DNA from: a virus
Lineage: Duplodnaviria; Caudoviricetes
Strand: one strand, 5' to 3'
IMG/VR virus record: IMGVR_UViG_3300010340_001122
Length of the DNA: 64,000 nt
Positions 28,298 to 28,420 of the stretch are shown one piece after another. A program made the translations under genes and the position numbers. The stretch's first letter is position 1; each line of letters opens with the position of its first letter. Under the pieces are notes generated by a model. It was not told the DNA's origin. It searched no databases and saw nothing but the letters and a program-made list of their open reading frames with translations.

Positions 28298-28366
28298 ATG
28301 AAAGTCATGAACACTACATCATCATCGTCGTCAAGTCGTAGTTCGAAGATGGTAATGTATTGCTAA
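28298..28366 (+). CDS. Leader peptide 2 (22 aa, Ser/Arg run)
   Basis: MKVMNTTSSSSSSRSSKMVMYC*. Confidence 0.8.
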   Translation: MKVMNTTSSSSSSRSSKMVMYC

Positions 28367-28381
28367 AAATAAAAATACACG

Positions 28382-28420
28382 AAATCCTCGAATTTGAAAA
28401 AGTTCGAGGATTTTTTATTT
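28382..28420 (+). terminator. Attenuator terminator 2
   Basis: AAATCCTCGAATTT-GAA-AAAGTTCGAGGATTTTTTATTT directly before tRNA-Arg. Confidence 0.88.

Follow-up and report, generated by a model that had tools for sequence, protein, structure and literature searches.

A putative ribosome-mediated attenuator in front of a Ser/Arg tRNA array in a phage genome fragment

The pheM attenuator of E. coli pheST, which encodes phenylalanyl-tRNA synthetase, provides charged-tRNA feedback via ribosome stalling on its leader. The locus considered here, located in a 64-kb stretch of phage DNA (the window, i.e., the whole of the DNA analysed), would share with pheM the feedback on charged tRNA supply, whereas pheM controls a synthetase, responds to a single amino acid, and is chromosomal. 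To our knowledge, no classical attenuator has been described for Ser or Arg. In the general model, a short leader ORF is combined with a 1:2 protector, a 2:3 antiterminator, and a 3:4 terminator (PMC3082878). With its tandem sensor codons and 1:2, 2:3, and 3:4 elements, the window locus resembles the E. coli trpL, hisL, and pheL leaders as well as the multivalent thrL and ilvL leaders.

It is highly probable that this locus is a ribosome-mediated transcription attenuator forming a feedback loop on the supply of Ser/Arg tRNAs, which are probably made only when ribosomes read Ser/Arg codons slowly. An earlier note on this DNA had proposed such an attenuator. The proposal is now backed by homologues, covariation, and the matching of leaders to arrays, but two of its parts, the register of the Arg codon and the block by a ribosome at the stop codon, failed for the window allele.

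The window is an AT-rich phage contig with tail fibre, baseplate wedge, and endolysin-like matches. Its baseplate protein is 67% identical to that of the uncultured phage LR756502 (642 kb), 65% identical to that of LR745206 (634 kb), and ~40% identical to the counterparts in LR756504 and LR756501. The promoters in the window are of the TTTG/TANNTTTG type, the consensus and numbering of which are established for Bacteroidota (PMC6847099), so the host is probably a member of this phylum; the best matches of purA are from Chitinophagales (46–47% identity), which is a weak host hint.

Leader and competing RNA structures

The coordinates of the features are collected in Table 1.

Table 1 Features of the Ser/Arg locus and of two further cassettes (window positions)
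Feature	Position	Strand	Details
Putative Bacteroidota primary-sigma promoter	28251..28282	+	-33 TTTG 28251-54; -7 TATATTTG 28275-82; 20-nt spacer
Leader ORF (predicted), 22 codons	28298..28366	+	preceded by A at -3 and -6; another in-frame ATG at 28307
Protector (1:2) hairpin, 16 bp	28312..28362	+	about -13.5 kcal/mol including a small upstream hairpin
Sensor run: six Ser, Arg, two Ser	28319..28345	+	codons 8-16 of leader ORF
Antiterminator (2:3)	28336..28397	+	28336-50 pairs with 28384-97; inner stem 28356-61/28374-79
Sole remaining TTCGAA direct-repeat copy	28342..28347	+	site of the 11-nt deletion relative to L164
Intrinsic terminator (3:4), 15-bp stem and U tract	28381..28421	+	folding; compensatory pair
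tRNA-Arg(TCG)	28424..28496	+	ARAGORN and Rfam; starts 2 nt past the U tract
DUF559/MTES_1575 endonuclease-like ORF, 282 aa	28553..29401	+	inserted in the array
tRNA-like RNA, conserved	29337..29405	+	T arm, acceptor-like hairpin, D arm; permuted (YrlA-like) order
tRNA-Ser(TGA), intact	29414..29501	+	ARAGORN and Rfam
Broken Ser(TGA)/Ser(GCT) chimera	29506..29587	+	lacks the T arm; mismatched acceptor; Ser(GCT) gene deleted
~233-nt RNA	29592..29826	+	arms as in tRNA (acceptor, D, T) and a large insert; conserved in L038, L048
tRNA-Arg(GCG)	29830..29903	+	ARAGORN and Rfam
tRNA-Ser(GGA), final array gene	29913..30000	+	ARAGORN and Rfam
Cassette 1: promoter, leader, terminator, tRNAs	24031-25268		leader 24087-24194, terminator 24222-52
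Cassette 3: 11-codon leader with Tyr-Tyr	31026-31195		two linked terminators

The predicted transcription start is position 28287, and the same -7 box is located upstream of most homologous leaders. Because the -7 8-mer alone is common (19 occurrences in the window against 12 expected), the promoter assignment is based on position and conservation. The A residues at -3 and -6 of the leader ORF correspond to initiation determinants in Flavobacterium (PMC6847099), and the ORF is presumably translated, for which its conservation at the level of codons (see below) is an indirect indication. The short promoter-proximal ORF carries tandem codons for the presumed regulating amino acids: its codons 8–16 are exactly the TCA TCA TCG TCG TCA AGT CGT AGT TCG of the earlier note, and this Ser/Arg run of nine codons exceeds all others in the six frames of the 64 kb and was reached in none of 200 block-shuffled windows. 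Because the codon families are mixed, an origin of the Ser run by simple repeat slippage was rejected.

Three mutually exclusive folds were computed for the transcript: the protector (28312-62), the antiterminator (28336-97), and the terminator. The 16-bp protector, the 1:2 element of the classical design, had been overlooked previously; it sequesters part of the antiterminator segment. The similarity proposed between 28340-50 and the terminator 3′ arm (28401-11) was confirmed at 10 of 11 positions (p 0.0005 against base shuffling, 0.015 against synonymous recoding). When the truncated RNA was folded, its minimum-energy structure (-13 kcal/mol, z -2.8) contained both the proposed pairing of 28340-50 with 28384-94 and the inner stem around the stop codon (28356-61/28374-79). 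A terminator ahead of the tRNA array, as had been claimed, is clearly present: positions 28381-28414 fold at -19 kcal/mol (z -5.7), followed by a U run at 28411-28421, and a compensatory C-G/U-A pair occurs at alignment columns 111:139. It lies between leader and cargo with no intervening promoter, and the start of tRNA-Arg(TCG) directly behind the U tract leaves no space for a downstream promoter of its own; a phage-specific promoter may overlap the terminator. The mutual exclusion of antiterminator and terminator is both computed and covarying. Equilibrium folding favours the terminator (-19 vs -13 kcal/mol), the folds describing an equilibrium and the switch being kinetic.

Fifteen homologues of two types were found by a tRNA-Ser pattern and a leader-plus-structure pattern. 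In their alignment (69% mean column identity), the ATG, the Ser/Arg run, and the structure are all kept; Ser is conserved despite switches between TCN and AGT (AGY) codons, and the indels upstream of the antiterminator preserve the frame. The peptide tail is unconserved, with three unrelated versions, one of them produced by a frameshift. CGC/CGT account for 18 of the 22 Arg codons upstream of the antiterminator, compared with 4.8% of the Arg codons in phage genes, and match the Arg(ACG/GCG) tRNA of the arrays. The codon match is imperfect: TCC/TCT, read by Ser(GGA), make up 4 of 125 Ser codons, and CGA, which Arg(TCG) reads, falls inside the antiterminator of relatives. The leader-plus-structure pattern, which contained no tRNA sequence, returned nine viral loci (eight distinct), and all nine are followed by Ser/Arg (or undetermined) tRNAs only. 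Exact and near-exact leader patterns gave no match in viral_contigs, and whole-array blastn against phages returned tRNA-Ser matches only. Antiterminator pairing was kept in 124/124 cells (100%), with A-U/G-C swaps at two pairs and none of 500 shuffles equalling it, figures to be read with six of the eight pairs invariant, about two sequence types underlying the variation, and five core pairs having been part of the pattern by which 8 of the 16 alignment rows were retrieved.

The consequences of ribosome stalling were modelled by masking the RNA to 9–15 nt past the A-site codon and folding the remainder to the terminator loop, so that a kinetic switch is approximated by folds at equilibrium. 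Throughout the Ser/Arg run, the terminator 5′ arm was sequestered at 0.7–0.9 in each of the six undeleted homologues that were modelled. Over seven variants, readthrough was favoured during the run and lost within about two codons of its end, or earlier in the window allele. With no ribosome, antitermination ranged from 0.1 to 0.9, depending on the homologue.

The proposed sequence of events is as follows. Host RNA polymerase would start near 28287, and a ribosome would load on the leader. With rapid decoding of the Ser codons, the ribosome would cover 28336-50, the terminator would form, and transcription would stop 2 nt before tRNA-Arg. A ribosome waiting with a TCA/TCG codon (8–12) in its A site would instead disrupt the protector and leave 28336-50 free to capture the emerging 5′ arm of the terminator, so that the array would be transcribed. 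The structures are computed and covarying; the kinetics, the coupling of transcription with translation, and actual readthrough are presumed.

The window allele, its sister strain, and the tRNA array

The endonuclease protein of a sister strain (L164, L167) is identical to that of the window, and within 28270-28500 L164 differs from the window solely by 11 additional bases, which lie between two TTCGAA repeats. In the sister strain, the second Ser(TGA) gene and the Ser(GCT) gene are both intact; in the window, they are joined in a chimera of the 5′ part of the former and the 3′ end of the latter (29506-29587), which was called by neither ARAGORN nor Rfam, even at relaxed thresholds. Since the deleted leader form recurs in five independent assemblies (L165, L166, L168, L171, and L172) and the chimeric tRNA in three assemblies, both deletions are real, and an assembly artefact was rejected for either. 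A gene of another kind also differs between the strains: the DUF7352 gene (window:27744-28028) is missing from L164, where a 92-aa ORF runs unbroken through the site, and an identical DUF7352 protein is encoded in different surroundings elsewhere (L170, L175), so that this gene is regarded as a mobile cassette.

The 11-nt deletion brings the antiterminator 11 nt nearer to the sensor run and frameshifts the peptide tail. In the model, a stall frees segment 2 over the whole run in undeleted alleles, but only at Ser8–12 in the window. The claim that a ribosome stalled at the first Ser codons leaves the antiterminator free is thus borne out by the model, readthrough being promoted in the window allele only by TCA/TCG codons 8–11 or 8–12 (28319-28333). 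AGT13 scores as borderline to off and CGT14 as off: when Arg14 occupies the A site, sequestration of the terminator arm has a P of about 0.2–0.27 in the window, against 0.77–0.9 in the sister strain, so Arg sensing by the window leader is out of register. The block by a ribosome at the stop codon fails likewise, since 22 nt separate this codon from the preceding antiterminator core in the window, compared with 11 or 14 nt in 15/15 homologues; a stop-bound ribosome would therefore act chiefly on the inner stem, and codons 13 to about 18 are the positions at which the model predicts a block. Both of these claims describe the family better than the window copy. Nor is this locus the clearest of the three cases in the window, as had been stated: its leader-terminator duplex is marginal (p 0.03–0.04), and the undeleted relatives are cleaner. 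According to the model, the window allele, which arose by deletion, has been narrowed to the sensing of TCA/TCG, and the family form is predicted to sense TCN, AGT, and CGY.

How far the deletion has damaged the switch may be questioned. The family could consist of true attenuators and the window allele could be a damaged, leaky, or largely constitutive derivative, a reading which is compatible with attenuation in the family and which we regard as possible, though considerably less probable than a working switch. The deletion is of the slippage type and is unique to the window strain among the 16 aligned leaders and the sister strain; the antiterminator is no longer occupied by the ribosome at the stop codon and can partly re-form behind it (P 0.5–0.86); and the array bears a second deletion, by which Ser(TGA)2 and Ser(GCT) were destroyed. 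However, four to five TCA/TCG codons remain in the switching zone of the window allele, the helix behind the stop-bound ribosome is weak (-6.6 to -10.6 kcal/mol for the whole fold against -19 kcal/mol for the terminator), and the sister allele yields a similar 0.5 from the upstream copy of the repeat. The removal of AGT sensing in a strain lacking Ser(GCT) could be re-tuning, although this is a single event noticed post hoc, and it may be coincidence.

The array downstream had been described as all-Ser/Arg, which holds for its four recognisable tRNAs: Arg(TCG), one Ser(TGA), Arg(GCG), and Ser(GGA) were called by ARAGORN and Rfam, but the second Ser(TGA) listed earlier is the broken chimera, and the DUF559 endonuclease gene and two tRNA-like RNAs are also located inside the array. 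Arg(GCG) alternates with Arg(ACG) among the relatives; a tRNA-Arg with the GCG anticodon is unusual in bacteria. The DUF559 ORF is missing at this position in L038, L041, L043, L044, L046, and L048. In the same six contigs (L043:848-922), the first gene past the terminator is a tRNA-Arg(TCG)-like RNA, seemingly devoid of the D arm, which is replaced in the window and L164 by the canonical Arg(TCG) and the DUF559 endonuclease. DUF559/MTES_1575 genes occur repeatedly inside tRNA arrays in the manner of homing elements (window:25329-26222 and 28553-29401; L164:4262-5074).

As to the tRNA-like RNAs, the one at 29337-29405 shows compensatory changes among the relatives (rows L041 and L038 were left out of alignment A3); its permuted order of T arm, hairpin, and D arm has been described for YrlA RNAs (PMC4201824), and a search of Rfam found no YrlA match to it. 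The RNA at 29592-29826 has a perfect 7-bp acceptor and is 83–85% conserved in L038 and L048, where the acceptor is compensated; no Rfam family matched it. Its identification as tmRNA or Ser(GCT) was rejected, as it has no G-U acceptor pair and coexists with Ser(GCT) in L038 and L048. At window:26232-26363 there is a further tRNA-like RNA, the anticodon arm of which is expanded (50 bits for Rfam tRNA; fold z -3.4), and similar elements directly precede the Ser/Arg leader in L053, L054, and L056.

Leader-to-array matching across genomes

Fifteen tRNA arrays with a leader and a terminator were found in four megaphage records (634–735 kb). The leader residues follow those of the leader's own array, the sets being Pro/Asp/Gln; Asn/Leu/Val/Ile/Thr/Met; Glu/Ala/Ile/Val/Gly; Leu/Ser/Cys; Glu/Gln/Met/Ile; Arg/Ala/Thr/Val/Gly/Pro; and others. 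For the 17 leaders of five genomes (the two of the window included), the true leader-to-array assignment was the best permutation in 5/5 genomes (ranks 1/2, 1/24, 1/6, 1/6, and 1/120), the product of 5e-6 being optimistic because the five genomes are related and not independent. The pairing of each leader with its own terminator arm ranked 1–3 of 17, and the close competitors were mostly homologous cassettes. Where Ser tRNAs have been regrouped, the Ser codons have moved with them, into the leader of a Leu/Cys array (L024) and into a His/Phe/Trp/Lys leader (L028).

Cassette 1 of the window has a 35-codon leader rich in His/Lys/Phe/Trp, followed by tRNAs for His, Phe, His, Trp, Phe, and Trp and three for Lys; its Trp(CCA) genes near 24525-24615 and 24699-24770 were missed by default ARAGORN, and homologues occur in L002, L012, L038, L039, L041, and L046. 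Cassette 3 precedes an HNH-like ORF, a GIY-YIG ORF, and two RNA ligases; it is conserved in L040, where it adjoins, directly upstream, a 72-aa gene and the first ligase, and is possibly a tRNA-damage sensor for repair enzymes. No tRNAs were found in L001, a contig with an RNA-ligase homologue.

For four multi-tRNA arrays in the relatives, no leader was detected within 1.4–1.5 kb, so some tRNA blocks may be constitutive. The arrays with no detectable leader-terminator are rich in Met/Glu/Tyr/Gly/Ala (L002:33839-36228, L013:2371-4657, L018, and L023, with two in LR756504). In LR756501, two CTA-anticodon tRNAs, possibly amber suppressors, were also noticed (L031:2086-2239).

Among bacteria, the cassette was found in 0 of 20 tRNA regions of Moheibacter (Bacteroidota), and no serS leader was seen in four Bacteroidota genomes. 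A Chitinophagales hisG gene, however, is preceded by a predicted His-run leader (L162:1291-1350) and a terminator (L162:1291-1410 for the two together) in the same layout as the phage cassettes, and its switch point in the model lies just past the His run. The mechanism thus seems to be available in the host group and its use on tRNA genes to be phage-specific, in a small sample.

Input of the switch and relation to described systems

As the output of the switch is tRNA and not a biosynthetic enzyme, the input is taken to be a functional tRNA shortage and not mainly Ser starvation; a shortage of functional tRNA caused by host cleavage or phage demand is most likely what was selected. The same mechanism could have evolved as a classical sensor of amino-acid starvation (low serine or low charging), which is rather unlikely. 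Any attenuator responds to uncharged tRNA, as established for trp, his, and phe (PMC3082878), and the host-type his leader shares its design with the phage cassettes. Extra tRNA would not, however, be expected to cure amino-acid starvation, whereas published work documents the cutting of tRNAs by host nucleases during infection as well as rescue by tRNAs of the phage (PMC11555353, PMC12916289), and two RNA ligases stand behind the third leader in the window.

It is improbable that the leader is a stand-alone gene for a small protein or sRNA with its own terminator, the tRNAs then being made by leaky readthrough or with the help of a promoter or antitermination factor of the phage. Such a gene would have the same layout of promoter, short ORF, and terminator; the strong terminator prevails at equilibrium, and four arrays in relatives have no leader. 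But a functional peptide is at odds with its three unrelated tails, one of them frameshifted, and this reading leaves unexplained why leader residues track the arrays in 17 cases and why each leader is complementary to the arm of its own terminator. Direct, ribosome-free sensing of uncharged tRNA by a T-box-like leader RNA, which would likewise have tRNA as its input and a terminator/antiterminator pair as its switch, is hardly credible, as there is no UGGNACC antiterminator bulge, no Stem I specifier loop, and no Rfam T-box match, and the leader is only about 130 nt long, with many in-frame codons instead of one specifier.

With ribosome-mediated attenuation as the preferred reading, there is in our judgement an even chance that Bacteroidota megaphages possess a distributed tRNA surveillance, in which each block would be gated by a leader of its own codons, the phage would sense which host tRNAs had been destroyed and resupply just the block concerned, and the leaders would be re-tuned as genes move or vanish. 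If so, the leaders would list the tRNAs under attack, e.g., by anticodon nucleases. According to PMC10264068, the purpose of phage tRNAs has been debated for more than 50 years, between codon compensation and the replacement of tRNAs cut by defence systems. A tRNA block gated by slow decoding would make this debate directly testable, because the readthrough of each cassette would report the limiting tRNA during infection, and the two naturally occurring alleles, with their 11-nt difference, offer a ready test of the switch geometry.

In the literature searched, most subscription journals being outside its scope and novelty thus unproven, no description of attenuator-gated tRNA genes was found. 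In the case of T5/SP15 tRNA-Tyr and the retron Eco7, the level of phage tRNA decides the escape from a tRNA-cleaving defence; the T5/SP15 tRNAs are driven by a strong promoter, and neither attenuation nor a leader is mentioned there (PMC11555353). The text of PMC7162821, on the largest phage genomes, does not mention attenuation. In Rfam, the window leader matches His_leader (RF00514) with 31.9 bits (E 0.034), below the 49-bit gathering threshold. The predicted Chitinophagales hisG leader has the same promoter class, leader length, terminator style, and switch point as the phage cassette and differs from it in its cargo, hisG, the likeness being one of layout and model behaviour; a leader of this type is a plausible source of the phage design. 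As in T-box riboswitches, the choice between terminator and antiterminator would be tRNA-responsive, but the sensing would be performed by an ORF and not by a T-box motif or specifier loop. Unlike trpL-type leaders, with their amino-acid biosynthesis or aminoacyl-tRNA synthetase operons, the window leader has tRNA genes as its cargo, is carried by a phage, and would sense Ser/Arg, with one cassette per tRNA block across most of the phage tRNA set; it would thus broaden the range of leader-peptide attenuation to include tRNA genes as cargo and Ser/Arg as sensed residues.
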